Shown: piece by piece, positions 9,634-20,851 of the stretch
How the letters are laid out: each line of letters starts with the position of its first letter
Numbering within the stretch: position 1 is the stretch's first letter
Assembly: GCA_964411255.1 (NCBI GenBank)
Contig: CAYPKD010000004.1
Coordinates: 178,147 to 205,702 of the forward strand
Direction: 5' to 3'
From: an uncultured Gammaproteobacteria bacterium
Lineage (GTDB): Bacteria > Patescibacteriota > Patescibacteriia > UBA11705 > DATKZF01
Length of the DNA stretch: 27,556 nucleotides
Translations under genes and position numbers: made by a program
Notes under the pieces: model-generated
The model's input: only the letters and a program-made list of their open reading frames with translations
Told to the model about the DNA's origin: nothing
Database searches by the model: none

Positions 9634-9666
9634 ATTTTTTTACCTAGACTCTTTTGTGAGTGTAAT

Positions 9667-9792
9667 AAACAAAAAGTACAACGTCATTCCCACGAAAGCA
9701 GGAATCCAGGACTGATTGCTCTGGACACCTGCTTTCGCTAGTGTGACAAACAAAGAGTACAGCGTCATTCCTGCGAAGGCAGGAATCCAGGC
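9667..9792. repeat. Two direct copies of a 45-nt hairpin repeat, A1 at 9667-9711 and A2 at 9748-9792, with an inverted partial copy between them
   Basis: The repeat unit is AAACAAA(A/G)AGTACA(A/G)CGTCATTCC(C/T)(A/G)CGAA(A/G)GCAGGAATCCAGG. A2 contains a perfect 8-bp stem, ATTCCTGC-GAAG-GCAGGAAT. Confidence 0.7.
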
Positions 9793-10134
9793 TTAGCTTA
9801 ATTCATTATATAAATCAATCCAATTTGGATTGTCTTCTTCTATTAATTTTAACTTCCACTTCCTTTTCCACTTCTTTATACACTTTTCCCTCCAAATTGC
9901 ATCCTCAATACTATCATGCTCCTCCAAATAAACTAATGTATGTACTTTATATCTTTTTGTAAAGGATTCATTAATATCATCCTTATGTTCATAAACTCTT
10001 CTAGCAATATCATTTGTAACGCCAGTATATAAGGTTCCATTTCTCTTACTGGCCATTATATAAACATAGTAAGATTTCATATAAATTTCATGCCGATAAC
10101 TAATATGTGGATTCCTGCCTTCGCAGGAATGACG
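9763..10134. mobile_element. Putative miniature mobile unit: the GIY-YIG ORF bracketed by perfect 26-bp inverted repeats (9763-9788 and 10109-10134)
   Basis: CGTCATTCCTGCGAAGGCAGGAATCC at 9763-9788 is the exact reverse complement of GGATTCCTGCCTTCGCAGGAATGACG at 10109-10134. No target-site duplication could be identified by eye. Confidence 0.35.
9793..10080 (-). CDS. GIY-YIG nuclease-superfamily small protein (YhbQ/UPF0213-like), 95 aa
   Basis: YVYIMASKRNGTLYTGVTNDIARRVYEH matches the GIY-(x10)-YIG motif, with the conserved Arg and Glu. Confidence 0.8.
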   Translation of the reverse strand: MKSYYVYIMASKRNGTLYTGVTNDIARRVYEHKDDINESFTKRYKVHTLVYLEEHDSIEDAIWREKCIKKWKRKWKLKLIEEDNPNWIDLYNELS

Positions 10135-10245
10135 TAAACGGTATCGGCATTATGATGACTTTTCCTCAGGAATGACGAAAACCGTATCGGCATTATGATG
10201 ACTTTTTCTCGGGGATGACAAAAACAGAGTCGGCATTATAATTTA
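10088..10245. repeat. Repeat cluster downstream of the GIY-YIG gene: an inverted copy of the hairpin repeat (B1, 10109-10134) plus a 42-nt tandem direct repeat x2.6 (10136-10177, 10178-10219, partial 10220-10245)
   Basis: AAACGGTATCGGCATTATGATGACTTTTCCTCAGGAATGACG and AAAACCGTATCGGCATTATGATGACTTTTTCTCGGGGATGAC are followed by AAAAACAGAGTCGGCATTATAATTT. An inverted copy, CATGCCGATA, of the repeat core GTATCGGCATT lies at 10089-10098. Confidence 0.7.
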
Positions 10246-10667
10246 TCTCTAATTAATTCAGCCACTTCATGCAATTCCTTTTCAGGTGAAATTTCTCTTG
10301 ATCCTGGTCGATATAAAAATTTTCTTGGATCATATTGATGAATTCCCGTATCTTTTGGCTTTCTGGGAATTAAATGTAAATGAAAATGAGGAATAGACTG
10401 CCCAGCATCTTTGCCCTCATTCCAGGCGTGATTAAATCCAGTGACGCCAAACAATTCCATAAGCGCTGGTTTTAGTTCCTCAGCCAAATCCAGCACAGCC
10501 ATTATTTCATCTTCTGTCATCTTTTCAATTGCTTCTACCTGTCTTTTTGGCACAATTAAAATATGACCAGGCACAATCGGCATATTTGTCGGAAAAGCAT
10601 AAGCCAAATCATTTTCAATAATGATTCTGTTTTTTATATCTTCTAAGTCATTAAATGAAATTGGCAT
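10236..10667 (-). CDS. HIT-family (histidine triad) nucleotide hydrolase/transferase
   Basis: The histidine triad is HFHLHLIP (HxHxHxx), and the N-terminal core is GHILIVPKR. Confidence 0.8.
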   Translation of the reverse strand: MPISFNDLEDIKNRIIIENDLAYAFPTNMPIVPGHILIVPKRQVEAIEKMTEDEIMAVLDLAEELKPALMELFGVTGFNHAWNEGKDAGQSIPHFHLHLIPRKPKDTGIHQYDPRKFLYRPGSREISPEKELHEVAELIRDKL

Positions 10668-11061: not shown

Positions 11062-11268
11062 TTATACCTTTTGTTTTGGCACTATAAAAATCAAATATAA
11101 ACTAACTACCCAAAGACCAAGGCTTATATAAAGCACAAAATTTGGCATTACATACCAATTTGAAAAATACGCAATTACTTTTGCTGCAATGCCCAGCAAT
11201 GATATAATTAATAAAATTTTTCCAGCTAAGTTGAAATTTACAGGCACTAAACCTGGAGGATATTTCAT
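11062..11268 (-). CDS. Possible small membrane protein (68 aa) starting at the internal Met of the track ORF 11062-11436
   Basis: The track ORF runs through the tRNA gene and so cannot be real upstream of about 11330. The C-terminal 68 codons (MKYPPGLVPVNF...) are hydrophobic and may be real. Confidence 0.3.
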   Translation of the reverse strand: MKYPPGLVPVNFNLAGKILLIISLLGIAAKVIAYFSNWYVMPNFVLYISLGLWVVSLYLIFIVPKQKV

Positions 11269-11331
11269 ACGATTTAATGGTTCAATCTTCGCAAAACCTT
11301 CTGGCCTGCCAGCCGAAGCTTCAGCGAAGGC

Positions 11332-11418
11332 TGGCGGAGAGGACAGGATTTGAACCTGCAAGTCCACAAGGGACGCACGCTTTCCAAGCGTGTGCCTTAC
11401 CATTCGGCGCACCTCTCC
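11332..11418 (-). tRNA. tRNA-Ser (anticodon GGA), class II with a long variable arm and an encoded 3' CCA
   Basis: The reverse complement reads GGAGAGG-TG-CGCC-GAATGGTAA-GGC-A-CACGC-TTGGAAA-GCGTG-CGTCCCTTGTGGACTTG-CAGGTTCAAATCCTG-TCCTCTCC-G-CCA. The anticodon loop is U33-GGA-A37, the D-stem is 3 bp and the variable arm is long (GTCC-CTTGT-GGAC), both typical of tRNA-Ser. Confidence 0.9.
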
Positions 11419-11510
11419 TCTTTCTCCTTCAACCACTCGCCTGCTCTGTACCGAACGCTAGTTCTGGTGCGGGGGCCATCTCTCCCTTAACGAACGAGTT
11501 TAATGAAAAT

Positions 11511-11675: not shown

Positions 11676-12548
11676 ATGGCTCAAGTTGATATGCACATAC
11701 ATTCGCATTTTTCAGATGGATCAGATTCTCCTACTCAAATCGTTCAAAAAGCAAAATCACTTGGATTAAAAGCAATTTGTCTGACTGACCATGACAATTA
11801 TGAAGGCTTGCCAGAATTCGTTCAGGCTTGCAGGGAACATAATATGAATTTTCTTTGCGGTATTGAAATAATGACATTTTTTCAGGGAATAAAGATTGAA
11901 ATACTGGCTTATGGCATTGATTTGCCCAGAGATGAAAAGTTAAAAGACATACTTTCTAAAAATTGGAAAGCTCATAATTTAAAAGTTCAAAAAATGCTTA
12001 ATGGATATTCTGAACATGGAATTTTTACTGCCACAGTAAACGATATTAAAAGAGCAATGGATTATAAAGGACCGTTTGCCACCAAGGCTTGGCTACGGGA
12101 ATTTAGAGTTCAGGAATTTGATGTTGAGAAAAAGCAAGCCAAACAAGAAACTGCCAAAAATGGTGTGGCTTATGCGCCATACGATCAAGATAAATTCATT
12201 ACTCCAGAAGAAGTGTTTGATTTTGTTCATGCGCTCGGCTGGAGAGCAGTTTTAGCTCATGGCGGAGTTATCAGCAAAGAAATACCTGAGTTTCAAAAGT
12301 GGACAGATTTTATTAAACTTCTTGTTTTGCAATTAAAACCGCTTGGTTTATTCGGAGTTGAAGCATATCACTACCGAAATGAAAAACAATATACTGAATT
12401 TCTTGTTCAAATGGCCCGAGAGCATGGCTTGGCAATAACTGGCGGATCTGATTATCATGGCAGATTTCAATCAAGGCAAATCGGGCAATTTGCAATCAGT
12501 TATGAAAATTTTTTGCAATTTAAAGAGCTAATAAACATAACCGCGTAA
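11676..12548 (+). CDS. PHP-domain phosphoesterase (TrpH/YciV-like; 3',5'-nucleoside bisphosphate phosphatase / RNase AM family), paralog 1
   Basis: The N-terminus MHIHSHFSDGSDSPTQIVQKAKSLGLKAICLTDHDN carries the PHP motif I HxH and motif II DHD. Later metal-ligand histidines are LAHGG and GGSDYHG. Confidence 0.8.
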   Translation: MAQVDMHIHSHFSDGSDSPTQIVQKAKSLGLKAICLTDHDNYEGLPEFVQACREHNMNFLCGIEIMTFFQGIKIEILAYGIDLPRDEKLKDILSKNWKAHNLKVQKMLNGYSEHGIFTATVNDIKRAMDYKGPFATKAWLREFRVQEFDVEKKQAKQETAKNGVAYAPYDQDKFITPEEVFDFVHALGWRAVLAHGGVISKEIPEFQKWTDFIKLLVLQLKPLGLFGVEAYHYRNEKQYTEFLVQMAREHGLAITGGSDYHGRFQSRQIGQFAISYENFLQFKELINITA

Positions 12549-12563
12549 TTCGTGGTTTTTTTT
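12539..12563 (+). terminator. Intrinsic terminator after PHP paralog 1
   Basis: The hairpin AACCGCG-TAATT-CGTGGTT (7 bp including one G:U) overlaps the stop codon and is followed by TTTTTTTT. Confidence 0.6.
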
Positions 12564-12570
12564 AATATTC

Positions 12571-12599
12571 TTGACTTTTTCCCTATAAAAGCCTAAACT
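12571..12599 (+). promoter_or_regulatory. Candidate promoter for PHP paralog 2: TTGACT at 12571-12576, weak -10 TAAACT at 12594-12599 after a 17-nt spacer
   Basis: Same -35 hexamer as the paralog 1 promoter. The -10 is imperfect. The SD AACAGGGGGAAAAAATG is at 12623-12639. Confidence 0.4.
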
Positions 12600-12636
12600 T
12601 TTATAACATATATGTTCTTTCAAACAGGGGGAAAAA

Positions 12637-13530
12637 ATGCCTTTTGAAGCTGATATGCATAGCCATTCATACTATTCTGATGGTTATAATTCTCCAGCTG
12701 AATTAGTCAAAACAGCAAAATCCCAAGGGTTAAAGGCAATTTGTCTGACAGATCATGATAATTTTAACGGCATACATGAATTTATCAGAGCCTGCAAATT
12801 AGCACGACTTGATTTCATCCATGCAATTGAGCTGACAACTACCTATAAAGGTGTAATCGTTCATATATTAGGCTATGGATTAGATCTGAATAATCACACT
12901 CTTAATAAAGTGGTCTTTTCTCAATGGTATGTTCATAACCTCAGAATGACTCAAATATTGAGAAAATATAGAAAAAAAAAGGTTATGGATGTTTCATTGG
13001 ATAATTTAAAAAGGTCAGTCCAATGCAAAGGCCCTTGTATGTTTGACACTTGGCTAATAGATTTTCGCATGAGAATGGCTGAAATTTCTTTTGAACAAGC
13101 AAAAAATGAAATTAGCGGTAATGGATTTGTTAATACTGAATATGATAGTGAATTATTACTCACTGCCCCTCAGGCAGTAGATCTAATTGATAATGCTGGA
13201 GGATTAGCAGTGATTGCTCATCCTGGTGAAATAAGAAGAAGGCTTGAAAACAGAGGGATTCACGTAAATTGGAATAATTTCATTCAATTATGTATTTCCA
13301 TTCTTGAAAACCAGGGTTTAGCTGGAATAGAAGTGTCTCATCCCAGAAATGATGATGAACAAACTGAATTTTTAACCCATCTGGCAGATCAACGAGGATT
13401 AATAAAATTTGGCGGGTCTGATTATCATGGAAAATTTAAATCATATCTTCCTGGTCAATGCGGCATTAGTTATAAAGCTTTTCAGCAGATTAAAGCCAAA
13501 ATTATTAAAAAAAGACCGCGAAAATCGTGA
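12637..13530 (+). CDS. PHP-domain phosphoesterase (TrpH/YciV-like), paralog 2
   Basis: MHSHSYYSDGYNSPAELVKTAKSQGLKAICLTDHDN is collinear with paralog 1, as are IAHPGE and GGSDYHG. Paralog 2 has a basic C-terminal tail, KKRPRKS. Confidence 0.8.
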   Translation: MPFEADMHSHSYYSDGYNSPAELVKTAKSQGLKAICLTDHDNFNGIHEFIRACKLARLDFIHAIELTTTYKGVIVHILGYGLDLNNHTLNKVVFSQWYVHNLRMTQILRKYRKKKVMDVSLDNLKRSVQCKGPCMFDTWLIDFRMRMAEISFEQAKNEISGNGFVNTEYDSELLLTAPQAVDLIDNAGGLAVIAHPGEIRRRLENRGIHVNWNNFIQLCISILENQGLAGIEVSHPRNDDEQTEFLTHLADQRGLIKFGGSDYHGKFKSYLPGQCGISYKAFQQIKAKIIKKRPRKS

Positions 13531-16628: not shown

Positions 16629-18128
16629 CTAATGACCAATTTTAAATATCTCAACTTTATTTGTTGCCATTACACCAAGCTTTATCCGATCATCAGATGA
16701 AGCATAAAGAGTAAATAATTTCTCACCTTTCTTTATCCTTTGACCAAAAAACGCATGCAAATGAACTCCCGCAAGCTTATCGCTTGGCGCACCAAGGTTC
16801 ATGCAAATTTCTTTAATTGCCTTGTTGTCAACAAAATTAATTTTACCCGTTTTTTTAGCATGAATTTCATATCTTTTAGCGCCAGAAGTGAAATCTTCTG
16901 AATGCTGGTCAGCTTTTCCGCCTTGCGCGATTACAATTTCATTCATTTTATCCCAGGCAGCGCCTGAAGTTAATTGCCGCATGGCAATTTTTCTGCCCTG
17001 ACCTTTTTTTGCAAACCCTTTTAATTCTAATAATTCACCTGCTAGTTTTACTGATTTTCTTTCTAAATCAAGCGGACGAAGCTCATGCCTTTGCAAAACT
17101 CTGAATACATCCCGAGCTTCCAGCGCTGGGCCAATTCCTCTGCCCAGCGGCTCTACGGCCTTTGTTTTCACTGCTTTTACCTTCATACCAAACCTTTTTC
17201 CCAAAGCAATGAATTTCTTCTCGATCATATTTGCTTTTGCCATATCAGGCACTTTGGTTGTCGGTCCGACCGGAATGTCAATAATTAAATAATCAACACC
17301 GGTCGCCACTTTTTTAGCTAAAATACTAACAATCATTTTATCATACGGCTCAAGAGCCAATGGTTTTGAAACTTTTATAATCTTATCATCAGCTGGAGCA
17401 AGGCTTAGTCCCCCGCCCCAAACCAGACAGCCATGTGTCTTTTTTACAATTTTTTTAATCTCATCCATTGAAAATGATACTGGGCAAATTACTTCCATTG
17501 TGTCTGCTGTACCTGCCGGAGATGTAATTGCTCTGGATGAAGTCTTTGGGATATATAGCCCGAGCGAAGCGATAATTGGAATAATTAACGGCGTAATTCT
17601 ATTACCTGACAGGCCGCCGACTGAATGCTTATCTACAGCTTTAACATTCAGGTTCATTTTCTCACCAGTTTCAGCCATTGCTTTTGCCACGTAATAGAGC
17701 TCGTCAAGCGAATAATCTTTTACAAAACTGGAGGCAGCATAATAAGTGGTTTCAACCGAACCTAGCACTCCGTCAACAATATCTTTAATAACCGCATAAA
17801 TTTCTTTGTATGTTACTGGTTTTCCCATTAACTTTTTATTTATTGTCTGAATAGAAAGTGGCCGGCTCATAATGCTGGCTTCAACAATATCGCCTGATTC
17901 TACTTGCACTTTTTTCCATACTTCCTTGAACAAGCCTAATTCTCCAGGTCGAACCTTTGTATTTGTCGTATCAGCGGTAACGATCGCTTTTTTATTTTTA
18001 CTCCAAATCAAATTCAACCTGTCTCCAGGATAAATTCCATAGCTTTCCGCTTCATCTTCATTTAAAACAGCGATCATTTTATCGCCTGTTGAAAAATCCA
18101 ATTTTTTGCATTTTAAATAAAACGCCAT
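16629..18128 (-). CDS. AMP phosphorylase (thymidine-phosphorylase family II enzyme with an N-terminal extension)
   Basis: At 499 aa it is longer than a classical TP. It has glycosyltransferase-family-3 core motifs (SVGGLSGNRITP, TSSRAITSPAGTADT) and a C-terminal alpha/beta domain, and it sits next to RuBisCO and the R15P isomerase. Confidence 0.8.
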   Translation of the reverse strand: MAFYLKCKKLDFSTGDKMIAVLNEDEAESYGIYPGDRLNLIWSKNKKAIVTADTTNTKVRPGELGLFKEVWKKVQVESGDIVEASIMSRPLSIQTINKKLMGKPVTYKEIYAVIKDIVDGVLGSVETTYYAASSFVKDYSLDELYYVAKAMAETGEKMNLNVKAVDKHSVGGLSGNRITPLIIPIIASLGLYIPKTSSRAITSPAGTADTMEVICPVSFSMDEIKKIVKKTHGCLVWGGGLSLAPADDKIIKVSKPLALEPYDKMIVSILAKKVATGVDYLIIDIPVGPTTKVPDMAKANMIEKKFIALGKRFGMKVKAVKTKAVEPLGRGIGPALEARDVFRVLQRHELRPLDLERKSVKLAGELLELKGFAKKGQGRKIAMRQLTSGAAWDKMNEIVIAQGGKADQHSEDFTSGAKRYEIHAKKTGKINFVDNKAIKEICMNLGAPSDKLAGVHLHAFFGQRIKKGEKLFTLYASSDDRIKLGVMATNKVEIFKIGH

Positions 18129-18140
18129 ATAGTATTTATA

Positions 18141-19406
18141 TTATTTTTTCCAAAACTGTAAAGCCCTTGCCAATTCTTCATGATCTTCTGAATATTCTTT
18201 TAATTTTACTCCACGCTCAATGGCTTGCACTGCCTGGCGGCAAGCCCTGGCGCCGGCAACTGAACCGTCTGGATGGCCGTGAATACCAGCGCCAAAATTG
18301 GCGATTAGATTTATTCCGAGTATTTCAACCAATTTAGGCAAAAGCCCTGGATGCAAACCACCAGAAGCAATTGGCAAAACCGGTTTAATTTTACTCCAAT
18401 CCTCTTTGACAATATTGTGGCTTTTCCAGTCTTCCTTCATCAATTGATTTACTGTTAAAACATCTTCCCGATCGCCCTCCATTTTACCAACTACTGTTCC
18501 AGTATGCAATTGGTCAACTCCGGCCAGTCTGGCTAATTTTGCAATAACCAGCATACTCATCCCATGTTTTTTATTTCTGGTAAATAATGCGTGTCCTGCC
18601 CGGTGGCCATGAATTATTAATCCTAAATTTTTCTTTCGTAAATATTGTACATTATCTAAACCAGTTGAAACGATATCAACCATCACGCATTTTCCACCCA
18701 ATTTTTTCACTAATTTTGCCCGTTCAAGCATTTGTTCAGGCGGTGCAGTAATATTACAGGCATATACTTTTTTCTGTTTTGTTTCTTTTTCAACTTTTTT
18801 CTTCCAATACAAAACCTTTTTCACTCTGTCTGCAAAACGGTTAAAGCTCATGTTAGTTAAATTCTCATCGTCTTTAACCAAATCAATGCCATTCAGCCAT
18901 ACAGCAGCTGACAATTTTGCCTGCTGGGCCGCAGTTAAACCTACTTTTGGTTTTATAATACTTCCTAAAATCACTCTGCCTTTTATTTTTAAAATCTTTC
19001 GGATGCCGTCAATGCCAAATGCCGGCCCCTTAAAACTGGCGCTGTATTTCACTGGAAATTCAATATCTTCCCATCTTAAATTTTTTATTAACTTCATACC
19101 GTAAATATTGCCTCCAATGCTTGATAAAAGTTGAGGAATACTGCCCCTTTCAAATAAATCTAAAGGATAAGCAACTTTTATTATCTTTTTCTTTTCATTT
19201 GCAAAAAAGACTCTGGCCTTTAATTTTTCTGCTAATTTGGGGTTCAGTGTCTGTAATTCTGTCCATGATCCAATAGAACTCTCCCCAGCAACTGCATCAG
19301 CTGCTTCCTGAAAGCTGACTCCTCTTGGCTCAACATAAAAAGTAGCGATAATTTCCTTATCCTTTTTTGGCTTGTATCCAATTTCAACAAATTTTACTAC
19401 TGACAT
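18141..19406 (-). CDS. rbcL: RuBisCO large subunit, short form II/III-like (421 aa)
   Basis: The motifs GIDLVKDDENL (GxDFxKDDE), IIKPKVGL (KPKLGL), IHGHRAGHA (HxHRAxH) and ASGGLHPG are present. No small subunit is present. Confidence 0.85.
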   Translation of the reverse strand: MSVVKFVEIGYKPKKDKEIIATFYVEPRGVSFQEAADAVAGESSIGSWTELQTLNPKLAEKLKARVFFANEKKKIIKVAYPLDLFERGSIPQLLSSIGGNIYGMKLIKNLRWEDIEFPVKYSASFKGPAFGIDGIRKILKIKGRVILGSIIKPKVGLTAAQQAKLSAAVWLNGIDLVKDDENLTNMSFNRFADRVKKVLYWKKKVEKETKQKKVYACNITAPPEQMLERAKLVKKLGGKCVMVDIVSTGLDNVQYLRKKNLGLIIHGHRAGHALFTRNKKHGMSMLVIAKLARLAGVDQLHTGTVVGKMEGDREDVLTVNQLMKEDWKSHNIVKEDWSKIKPVLPIASGGLHPGLLPKLVEILGINLIANFGAGIHGHPDGSVAGARACRQAVQAIERGVKLKEYSEDHEELARALQFWKK

Positions 19407-19410
19407 AACA

Positions 19411-19502
19411 TTGATAGTTACGAAGTTATGATGTTATGAAGTTACGTTGTTATTTAAAATATATATAACGTCGTAACTTAGTAACCTCGTAACATCATAA
19501 CG
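19411..19502. repeat. Imperfect palindrome of about 90 bp built from heptamer units (AGTTAYG on the left, CGTAACT-type on the right) around an AT-rich centre, lying between the HAD-like gene stop and the RuBisCO start
   Basis: The sequence is TTGATAGTTACGAAGTTATGATGTTATGAAGTTACGTTGTTAT-TTAAAATATATAT-AACGTCGTAACTTAGTAACCTCGTAACATCATAACG. Confidence 0.6.
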
Positions 19503-19914
19503 ATTTTATTAGTTTTACAATTTTTTCAATATCATCTAAGGCGAAGTCAACTTCATCTGTTTCATTATTTTTACTAAACAAAACTGTTTTAATTCCTACT
19601 TGTTTTGCTGGAAGCAAATTGCTAATAAGATCATCAATCATTAAACATTCTTCTGGTTTTATATTCAAATCATTTATAAATTTTTGATATGTATTTGCAT
19701 CTGTTTTACTTTGGCCTGATTCAGCGCAGGCAATGATAGGATCAAGCCCTAACTGATTTCCAATCTCTTTCACTGTGTTTGGAGATAAATTACTAATGGT
19801 TGCATTAATAATCCCTTTTGCTTTTAACTGTTCAACAATATCCTTGGCTTTAGGGTCAATCTGGCCATTTTTATAAACCACGCCATATAAATCCCAAATA
19901 ATTGCTTTAATCAT
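19495..19914 (-). CDS. Small HAD-like hydrolase domain protein (139 aa; a possible phosphatase)
   Basis: IIWDLYGVV sits at the motif-I position (DxDGx-like, with the second Asp replaced), and MIDDLISNL sits at the motif-IV position. It is short for a HAD enzyme, so the assignment is tentative. Confidence 0.45.
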   Translation of the reverse strand: MIKAIIWDLYGVVYKNGQIDPKAKDIVEQLKAKGIINATISNLSPNTVKEIGNQLGLDPIIACAESGQSKTDANTYQKFINDLNIKPEECLMIDDLISNLLPAKQVGIKTVLFSKNNETDEVDFALDDIEKIVKLIKSL

Positions 19915-20851
19915 ATTTTTTTTTCAAAAACTTATACTTCTTTGTCGTTTTCTTTGAAATATATTTTGGTTTTAATATTCCCAATTCTGTAATAAAACCT
20001 GTGATAAACCTGGCAGGAATAATATCAAATGCATAATTTATAATTTCCAATCCCTTTGGCGCTCTGGACCAAATTTCATTTGCTTTTCTTTGTTCAATTT
20101 CTAAATTTTTCAAATGTTTAGTTTCAATATCAAGCTTTAATGCCTGAGTTGCTATATATACTGGAATTTTTGCTTCACGCGCTGCTAAGGCCAGGCCTAA
20201 AGATCCTATCTTATTAACTGCATCACCGTCCAAAGTAATTGCATCACAGCCTAAAATTAATAAATCCATATCATATCCTTTGCTATACTGGCTGACAAAA
20301 AACGGACCTGCGCTGTCAACCACTTGGGTATTTTTAATATTCATTTTTAATAATTCTTTTGAAGTCGTTCTGCCCTGAAATAATGGCCTGGTTTCATTAT
20401 TAAAAACATGGATTTTTTTTCTTTTCTTTTTGGCCGCTTCTAATATACTTATTGCGGTAGAGGAATGACAATGAGTAAAGATATTATCATTATTACTAAT
20501 CAATTTCTCACCATAATCTTTAATAATTCTTTTATTTGTCATTATTTCAAATAAAAAACTGTCAATTCCTCTTTTTATTAAAACTCTTAACTTTTTTATA
20601 TCTAAATCCTGATTTTTATCTAAATGATATGAAACAAATCGTACAGCATTTTCTGCCATTGGCTCTGTTTCTCTGGCCCTGCTCAAGTAATATCCAATTT
20701 TTTTCACTCTGCTGATTAATTGACGGGGAGTTTTCAGCCTTTTCTCCTGAGAAACTTTTTTTAAGGTATTTAAAACAGCTTCAGCTATATTGGTTGCCCC
20801 CTGAATTTCAATGTTAACGATTTTTTTATAAATTTGGTCGATGTAATTCAT
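19907..20851 (-). CDS. Ribose-1,5-bisphosphate isomerase (eIF-2B alpha/beta/delta-like e2b2 family)
   Basis: An e2b2/MtnA-fold signature (GATNIAEAVL ... ILGCDAITLDGDAVNKIGS) is present. Its stop overlaps the HAD-like start by 8 nt. Confidence 0.75.
   Translation of the reverse strand: MNYIDQIYKKIVNIEIQGATNIAEAVLNTLKKVSQEKRLKTPRQLISRVKKIGYYLSRARETEPMAENAVRFVSYHLDKNQDLDIKKLRVLIKRGIDSFLFEIMTNKRIIKDYGEKLISNNDNIFTHCHSSTAISILEAAKKKRKKIHVFNNETRPLFQGRTTSKELLKMNIKNTQVVDSAGPFFVSQYSKGYDMDLLILGCDAITLDGDAVNKIGSLGLALAAREAKIPVYIATQALKLDIETKHLKNLEIEQRKANEIWSRAPKGLEIINYAFDIIPARFITGFITELGILKPKYISKKTTKKYKFLKKKYD

Follow-up and report, generated by a model that had tools for sequence, protein, structure and literature searches.

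A 27,556-nucleotide stretch of metagenomic DNA (contig CAYPKD010000004.1 of assembly GCA_964411255.1, forward-strand positions 178,147 to 205,702; hereafter the 27.5-kb window, to which all coordinates refer) was analysed to follow up an initial annotation that had singled out a small GIY-YIG nuclease gene lying between inverted repeats. The locus is very probably an ssnA gene accompanied by its cognate hairpins, the Ssn-related motifs (SRMs), and so a member of the Ssn/SRM system of Chenal et al. (Nat Commun 2025, PMC11893778). No new type of element is involved; what the locus adds is a host belonging to the Patescibacteria and an SRM variant that falls outside the published pattern. The annotation had regarded the association of nuclease and hairpins as novel, but it was described and biochemically tested in the 2025 study, to which we were led by the spread of the repeat's 26-mer over phyla together with its likeness to the palindrome of the Neisseria dRS3 element.

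In the published system, ssnA encodes a 94-amino-acid (aa) single-domain GIY-YIG protein (CDD cd10448), and its homologues are flanked by SRMs, which resemble the Neisseria Transformation Sequence (NTS; consensus CGTCATTCCCGCGMAVGCGGGAATCYRG). An SRM lies nearby in 71% of ssnA homologues, and SRMs lie on both sides in 42%. Purified SsnA binds the hairpin in single-stranded DNA (ssDNA) only and nicks a few nucleotides upstream (5') of it, being inactive on the reverse strand, on duplex DNA and on RNA; cleavage is lost on mutating Y6, Y17 or E64. Most important for cleavage are the three bases ahead of the palindrome, and for binding the C that follows it. Cleavage activity was demonstrated with the Neisseria and Wolbachia proteins, and N. 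meningitidis SsnA reduces transformation by NTS-bearing DNA. The same authors described the NTS–ssnA–NTS arrangement as insertion sequence (IS)-like, compared it to IS200/IS605 and to the transposases associated with repetitive extragenic palindromes (REPs), known as RAYTs, and raised self-mobility as a hypothesis while keeping a cautious position (all from PMC11893778).

Three features make up the core of the window locus:

9793..10080, minus strand: putative ssnA homologue, 288 bp, 95 aa, single-domain GIY-YIG nuclease placed in the Ssn family
10107..10134, minus strand: upstream SRM/NTS hairpin CGTCATTCCTGCGAAGGCAGGAATCCAC, reading forward along the coding strand of ssnA, with its end 26 nt ahead of the ATG
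9763..9790, plus strand: downstream SRM/NTS hairpin CGTCATTCCTGCGAAGGCAGGAATCCAG, forward on the opposite strand, starting 3 nt past the stop codon

The 288-bp GIY-YIG open reading frame (ORF) annotated between the repeats was confirmed, its product matching the Pfam GIY-YIG family (PF01541, E 2e-16) over residues 4–77 and carrying no second domain. The spacing of Y7, Y18 and E65 is identical to that of Y6, Y17 and E64 in N. meningitidis SsnA, the match being made by position to the reference residues given in PMC11893778. When 16 homologues with 63–88% identity to the window protein were aligned, Y18, R28, H32 and E65 were invariant and Y7 nearly so. The annotation's term 'YhbQ-like' proved to be loose: the PDB contained no close relative, and the best matches there, UPF0213 proteins, reached 26 bits (E about 1e-4). 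Searches of NCBIfam, PADLOC and PHROGs with the 95-aa protein returned nothing meaningful, and readings of the gene as part of a defence system or as a phage gene were set aside on these searches. We also considered whether the ORF might be a free-standing GIY-YIG homing endonuclease of the phage Seg or I-TevI type, cutting duplex DNA at a cognate site. Weakly in its favour, the group I intron endonuclease model TIGR01453 matched with 18 bits (cut-off 56) and a homing endonuclease family of PHROG with E 0.005, but all such matches lie far under curated cut-offs, the protein consists of the catalytic domain only, without a DNA-binding domain, and the window provides no intron or phage context, the neighbours of the gene being ordinary cellular genes. 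We give this reading almost no chance of being correct.

The perfect inverted repeat reported by the annotation held up, with arms at 9763-9789 and 10108-10134 that span 27 nt and are 100% complementary, or 28 nt with the next base (9763-9790 and 10107-10134). Compared with the NTS consensus, the downstream copy was identical at 26 of 28 positions, the differences being C10 to T and G19 to A. These are the two sides of one stem pair, a compensatory change from C:G to T:A; since both differences fall within one pair, the hairpin is preserved. The upstream copy differed from the consensus by the compensatory stem pair and by its last base. The window motif kept the bases reported as critical, namely the GTC that precedes the palindrome and the C immediately following it. 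Folded as ssDNA, each perfect arm gave a hairpin whose 8-bp stem is capped by a GAAG loop, at −7.7 to −9.1 kcal/mol and z from about −3 to −4 (−7.7 kcal/mol and z −3.9 for the upstream hairpin), in agreement with the annotation's statement that each inverted repeat is itself a hairpin. At up to 3 mismatches, the 26-mer CGTCATTCCTGCGAAGGCAGGAATCC matched three times in the window, always at the ssnA locus, and not once in 100 shuffles.

The arrangement of gene and motifs was then compared with that at 38 independent ssnA-homologue loci (L171-L208), taken from IMG/VR contigs classed as viral. An SRM was located within 250 nt of the gene at 15 of the 38 loci, 11 of which had SRMs on both sides; inside this distance SRM density was 2.2 per kb, and beyond it 0.035 per kb. 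Read along the coding strand, the SRM closest to the gene was forward at 13 of 14 loci on the upstream side and inverted at 10 of 12 on the downstream side. The inverted repeat in the window is thus the standard arrangement of the family, with both cleavage sides facing outward. Closer relatives had similar layouts. In locus L163, with 88% identity in ssnA, 43-nt half-site units and a forward NTS come before the gene, and two inverted NTS copies, set 81 nt apart as in the window's left flank, come after it together with a second hairpin type; in L164 (81% identity in ssnA), a tRNA-Ser gene, what is left of the HIT gene and one SRM accompany ssnA, along with more SRMs. The closest named homologue (L165, 76%, Bipolaricaulota) had the canonical GTCATTCCCGCGAAAGCGGGAAT in forward, inverted and forward orientation around the gene, among unrelated neighbours.

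Several observations weigh against assigning the locus to the Ssn system. The published degenerate SRM pattern (HGTCWY...RNCYNB) had no match in the window. It misses the window motif because of the T:A stem pair, and once relaxed at the T:A positions it found 9763(+), 10107(−) and 9721(−) only in the 27.5 kb. Placement of the protein in the Ssn family draws on size, domain, residue spacing and motif. Motif copies were confined to the ssnA locus, neither the mismatch search nor the relaxed pattern yielding a further copy in the remainder of the 27.5 kb, and a genome-wide target set is not evident there. Finally, the biological role described in the literature is for Neisseria only (PMC11893778).

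From these features we infer that the protein has the ssDNA activity of the Ssn family and that, in this organism, it would act on incoming or otherwise exposed ssDNA. The 95-aa GIY-YIG protein is predicted to bind the hairpin only when the strand is single, with uptake, replication, repair or transcription as the source of ssDNA. Nicking of the bound strand would follow, a few nucleotides to the 5' side of the motif, while the reverse strand, duplex DNA and RNA would not serve as substrates. The 5' sides of the two perfect copies, which occupy opposite strands, point away from the gene, so that nicks would be expected just outside it, at about 9755-9762 (plus strand) and 10135-10142 (minus strand). 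Degenerate copies, a second hairpin type and half-site units at the locus amount to the clutter common in SRM clusters and are inherited with it. These accessory features, and the nearest tRNA gene, are as follows:

9651..9791, no strand assigned: 81-nt direct repeat (family D2), two units (9651-9710 and 9732-9791), 83% identity
9682..9709, plus strand: degenerate SRM copy, 3 mismatches (over 9682-9707), stem disrupted, pairing with 9721-9737 to give a longer stem
9721..9748, minus strand: degenerate second-type SRM TGTCACACTAGCGAAAGCAGGTGTCCAG, recovered by the relaxed SRM pattern
10090..10150, minus strand: outer 9-bp stem ATGCCGATA / TATCGGCAT (arms 10142-10150 and 10090-10098), enclosing the upstream SRM
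10124..10252, minus strand: 43-nt tandem array, 2.7-3 units, 87% matches, on the 5' (cleavage) side of the upstream SRM
11332..11418: tRNA-Ser(gga), 1.2 kb from the repeat and nuclease locus

The degenerate direct copy (9682-9707) and the inverted fragment (9693-9709 / 9721-9737) that had been annotated in the left flank were both present, and both are located within the 81-nt direct repeat, each unit of which has one SRM of each type in opposite orientations. The degenerate copy did not fold alone; it pairs instead with the adjoining inverted fragment. The second hairpin type (GTCWCACCYGCG..CGCRGGTGTCCA) stands beside the first, downstream of ssnA, in the window, in L163 and L164 and in one distant genome. 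In relatives it is well preserved after ssnA, as CACACCTGCGAAGGCAGGTGTCCAG in L163 and L164 and as GTCTCACCCGCGAACGCGGGTGTCCAC in L166 and L168. The outer stem around the upstream SRM folded at −14.5 kcal/mol (z −4.5), a stability reached by none of 200 shuffles, and an analogous stem, GCCAAC...GTTGGC, surrounds an SRM in L127 and L128. In an Rfam scan of the window, tRNA alone scored above threshold. The Francisella small RNA FtrB gave sub-threshold matches (22 bits against a cut-off of 66) at 9743-9806 (+) and 10060-10150 (−) and was rejected as a family for the hairpins; FtrB itself probably contains an SRM-like hairpin.

The tandem array noted in the right flank was also found, and its units do echo the terminus of the inverted repeat, although its period is 43 nt and not 42. 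At the start of units 1 and 2 stands CAGGAATGACG, which repeats the 11 outermost nt of the right arm; each unit consists of about 32 nt of flank and the 5' half of the SRM (CGTCATTCCTG), the last one running into the end of the HIT gene. Conservation extends to the array in L163 and to the HIT-proximal unit in L127, a relative that lacks ssnA. Units of the same kind, in which only the 5' part of the motif is present, were recorded 32 times upstream and 5 times downstream of full motifs among the listed loci with the exact 26-mer (at least 120, see below), counts that are not independent because many of the loci come from related Dehalococcoidia. At L035, L039, L083, L089, L111, L116 and L120 (Dehalococcoidia and others), half-motif tandem arrays (CGTCATTCCTGC plus about 5 nt, period about 17) sit directly upstream of the full motif. 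Such half-motif arrays may have been left by nicking with repair, or may stem from slippage.

We searched for the exact 26-mer in one genome per species. The annotation had proposed a search for further copies with or without the ORF, and at least 120 loci were obtained. They include Nitrospirota, Alpha-, Gamma- and Deltaproteobacteria, Dehalococcoidia, Bacteroidota, Patescibacteria, Peregrinibacteria, Cloacimonadota, Zixibacteria and Sulfurovum. The motif was mostly gene-less: among the matches listed, a GIY-YIG gene was present in the retrieved stretch at 6 of 120 loci. Pairs without a gene were frequent, with a forward SRM, a spacer of 30-75 nt and an inverted SRM (e.g. L013:3394, L076:3612 and L119:6912-7008), and inverted half-sites or partners lay downstream of the motif in 38 cases vs upstream in 5 among the 26-mer loci listed. 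The gene-less forward–spacer–inverted pair has the layout of a miniature inverted-repeat element.

This distribution bears on whether the hairpins might be ordinary cis-regulatory elements (promoter, attenuator or terminator) without a functional link to the nuclease. According to the annotation, a repeat found nowhere else, at orthologous loci showing no variability, would have indicated a fixed regulatory hairpin; we found the repeat at the many loci above, and the gene is present in some relatives and absent from others. The upstream SRM does lie within the likely 5' leader of ssnA, and the same SRM and leader precede the flavodoxin gene in ssnA-less relatives, as a regulatory role would have it. 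Every 43-nt unit also contains a sigma-70-like TYGTCA-N18-CATAAT on the ssnA strand, a possible promoter. The hexamers are plausible, yet in this AT-rich DNA the count of promoter-like sites was not above that in shuffles (7 vs 3.6 ± 1.9), and the units were not taken to be promoters. Moreover, no T-run follows the hairpins, which therefore are not intrinsic terminators, and the 26-mer is exactly conserved across phyla and about 60-fold enriched beside ssnA homologues. Published biochemistry, in addition, revealed direct and specific recognition of the hairpin by the protein (PMC11893778). Taken with these points, a purely regulatory role is highly improbable.

A further possibility is that SRM–ssnA–SRM units are true, autonomous mobile elements that move via ssDNA intermediates. 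The 95-aa GIY-YIG protein would then serve as a transposase or nickase specific for hairpins in ssDNA, with the gene-less SRM pairs as non-autonomous derivatives similar to miniature inverted-repeat transposable elements (MITEs). The half-site arrays on the cleavage side would be repair scars of repeated nicking, and the window copy would be a resident one, possibly decaying. We consider this unlikely on the present comparisons, several of which do favour it. On both strands the cleavage sides point away from the gene, as the ends of an element would, and the exact 26-mer is dispersed over many phyla, often as gene-less pairs. The gene itself is also well conserved between distant hosts: ssnA is 63-76% identical to proteins of Bipolaricaulota, Deltaproteobacteria, Omnitrophica, Nitrospirae, Dehalococcoidia and Amoebophilus, whereas a beta-CASP housekeeping protein of the window is 75% identical to one from a 'Patescibacteria group bacterium', about 58% to those of Falkowbacteria and Kuenenbacteria, and about 50% outside that group. 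The difference suggests strong constraint, horizontal transfer, or both. On the other side, a single gene copy and no dispersed SRMs were found in the 27.5 kb, and a 95-aa nickase has no known strand transfer, Ssn having been reported for cleavage only (PMC11893778).

The window was also compared with L127, in which the glyoxalase, HIT, flavodoxin and RibD_C proteins are 81-88% identical to those of the window, ssnA is absent and the HIT–flavodoxin gap is 195 bp. The L127 spacer keeps the HIT-proximal half-site, together with two SRMs of another sub-variant, one inverted and one forward, and the same leader as that ahead of ssnA in the window, and the flavodoxin ATG occupies the position equivalent to the ssnA ATG. 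The two loci differ by the ssnA ORF and the 3' SRM array, about 447 bp. This ssnA-less interval answers to the empty site that the annotation had suggested looking for and is consistent with mobility, but the edges of the indel share ATATGAAA microhomology at the two start codons and do not coincide with the predicted SRM cut sites. With the upstream SRM and leader still in the 'empty' site, the indel does not correspond to a clean hairpin-to-hairpin excision. In L164 ssnA occupies the matching position beside tRNA-Ser and HIT, which counts against mobility and favours an ancestral gene that was later lost; the gene is therefore no less likely to have been lost on the way to L127 than gained on the way to the window. 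The locus is variable among relatives; at the same time, all five metagenome contigs that have the gene (the source contig and four others) were 100% identical to the window, which counts against mobility but carries no information on variability.

Two ssnA copies were found in GCA_023150995.1 (contig JAKLJV010000001.1), separated by 31 kb, in opposite orientation and with different neighbours, their products differing at four residues. Homology between the copies (L166:2845-3365 and L168:2845-3390) was 88% over about 436 nt and started and ended in the flanking SRMs, a pattern that fits duplication of the whole cassette and supports mobility; the identity of just 88%, on the other hand, means that the duplication was not recent. 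A third, gene-less copy of the upstream flank is present at L166:287-405. The cassette thus behaves as a unit, with active transposition as a hypothesis. The annotation's picture of a REP/MITE-like element bearing a nuclease gene was right in that the repeats and the gene belong together, the hairpins matter and the layout is alike; self-mobility would be a further step, against which the position of the indel edges away from the hairpins counts.

The window is contained in JGI contig Ga0309772_1000015, which measures 364,661 bp. Within the window, ssnA is surrounded by RibD_C, flavodoxin, HIT and glyoxalase genes, ordinary genes that are all on the same strand. The tRNA-Ser gene was where the annotation had placed it. 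As an integration site it was rejected, with no integrase, two ordinary genes in between and the same adjacency recurring in L164, and its proximity looks incidental. A 124-aa ORF at 11062-11436 (−) overlaps the tRNA-Ser gene, and its 5' part is probably spurious; the gene called at this site has 68 aa in the source contig and 113 aa in two others. Inside the ssnA ORF, a 7-bp perfect palindrome at 9816-9832 (CAATCCAAATTGGATTG) encodes the conserved NPNWID and is slightly changed in L163 and L164. It had been flagged as terminator-like on both strands but, encoding NPNWID, is probably a coding coincidence. Elsewhere in the window, two PHP-domain paralogues of 290 and 297 aa lie side by side at 11676-13530 (+), and a cluster at 16629-20851 comprises an IF-2B-like isomerase, a HAD hydrolase, a RuBisCO large subunit and a Glycos_transf_3 (AMP phosphorylase-like) gene, the nucleotide-salvage RuBisCO pathway typical of candidate-phyla-radiation (CPR) bacteria.

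The window thus contributes one more Ssn/SRM pair, from a CPR bacterium. The T:A variant of the SRM is common, being exact in at least 120 loci, and escapes the published pattern, so that published SRM counts may be underestimates. To our knowledge, Ssn enzymes are the only site-specific endonucleases that act on ssDNA only, and each new pair of Ssn enzyme and motif is a candidate tool. The presence/absence comparison with L127 and the pair in GCA_023150995.1 make mobility and the spread of the 26-mer easier to test, without answering either question.

Among known systems, the UPF0213/YhbQ proteins (PDB 1zg2 and 1ywl) are alike in being small stand-alone GIY-YIG domains of about 100 aa; their similarity to the window protein is distant (26 bits), Ssn proteins form another CDD family (cd10448), and YhbQ has no known association with SRMs. 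REP and bacterial interspersed mosaic element (BIME) repeats with their RAYTs, and IS200/IS605 with its HUH transposase TnpA, share the plan of a small gene flanked by hairpin repeats recognised as ssDNA, with dispersed gene-less pairs. Unlike them, Ssn uses a GIY-YIG rather than an HUH enzyme, of unrelated fold and chemistry, without known strand transfer and with mobility as a hypothesis. The Neisseria dRS3 and Neisseria intergenic mosaic elements (NIMEs) have the same core palindrome, ATTCC(C/T)-N8-(G/A)GGAAT, and occur as pairs flanking short variable segments; dRS3, however, is defined in Neisseria only, where it is an integration target for filamentous prophage, whereas the window has neither prophage nor recombinase. 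The closest counterpart is the Ssn/NTS system of N. meningitidis (SsnA, NMV_0044/NMB0047). The two differ in host (Patescibacteria, CPR, and not Pseudomonadati), in the stem pair (T:A in the window, C:G in Neisseria), in motif number (copies at the one locus in 27.5 kb vs hundreds in pathogenic Neisseria) and in that activity is predicted for the window protein and measured for the Neisseria one. They are alike in a single-domain GIY-YIG protein of about 94-95 aa, in a 28-nt oriented hairpin with 5' CGTCAT and 3' ATCCAG flanks and a GAAG-type loop, and in the placement of motifs on both sides of the gene, cleavage sides outward, with additional clustered copies.

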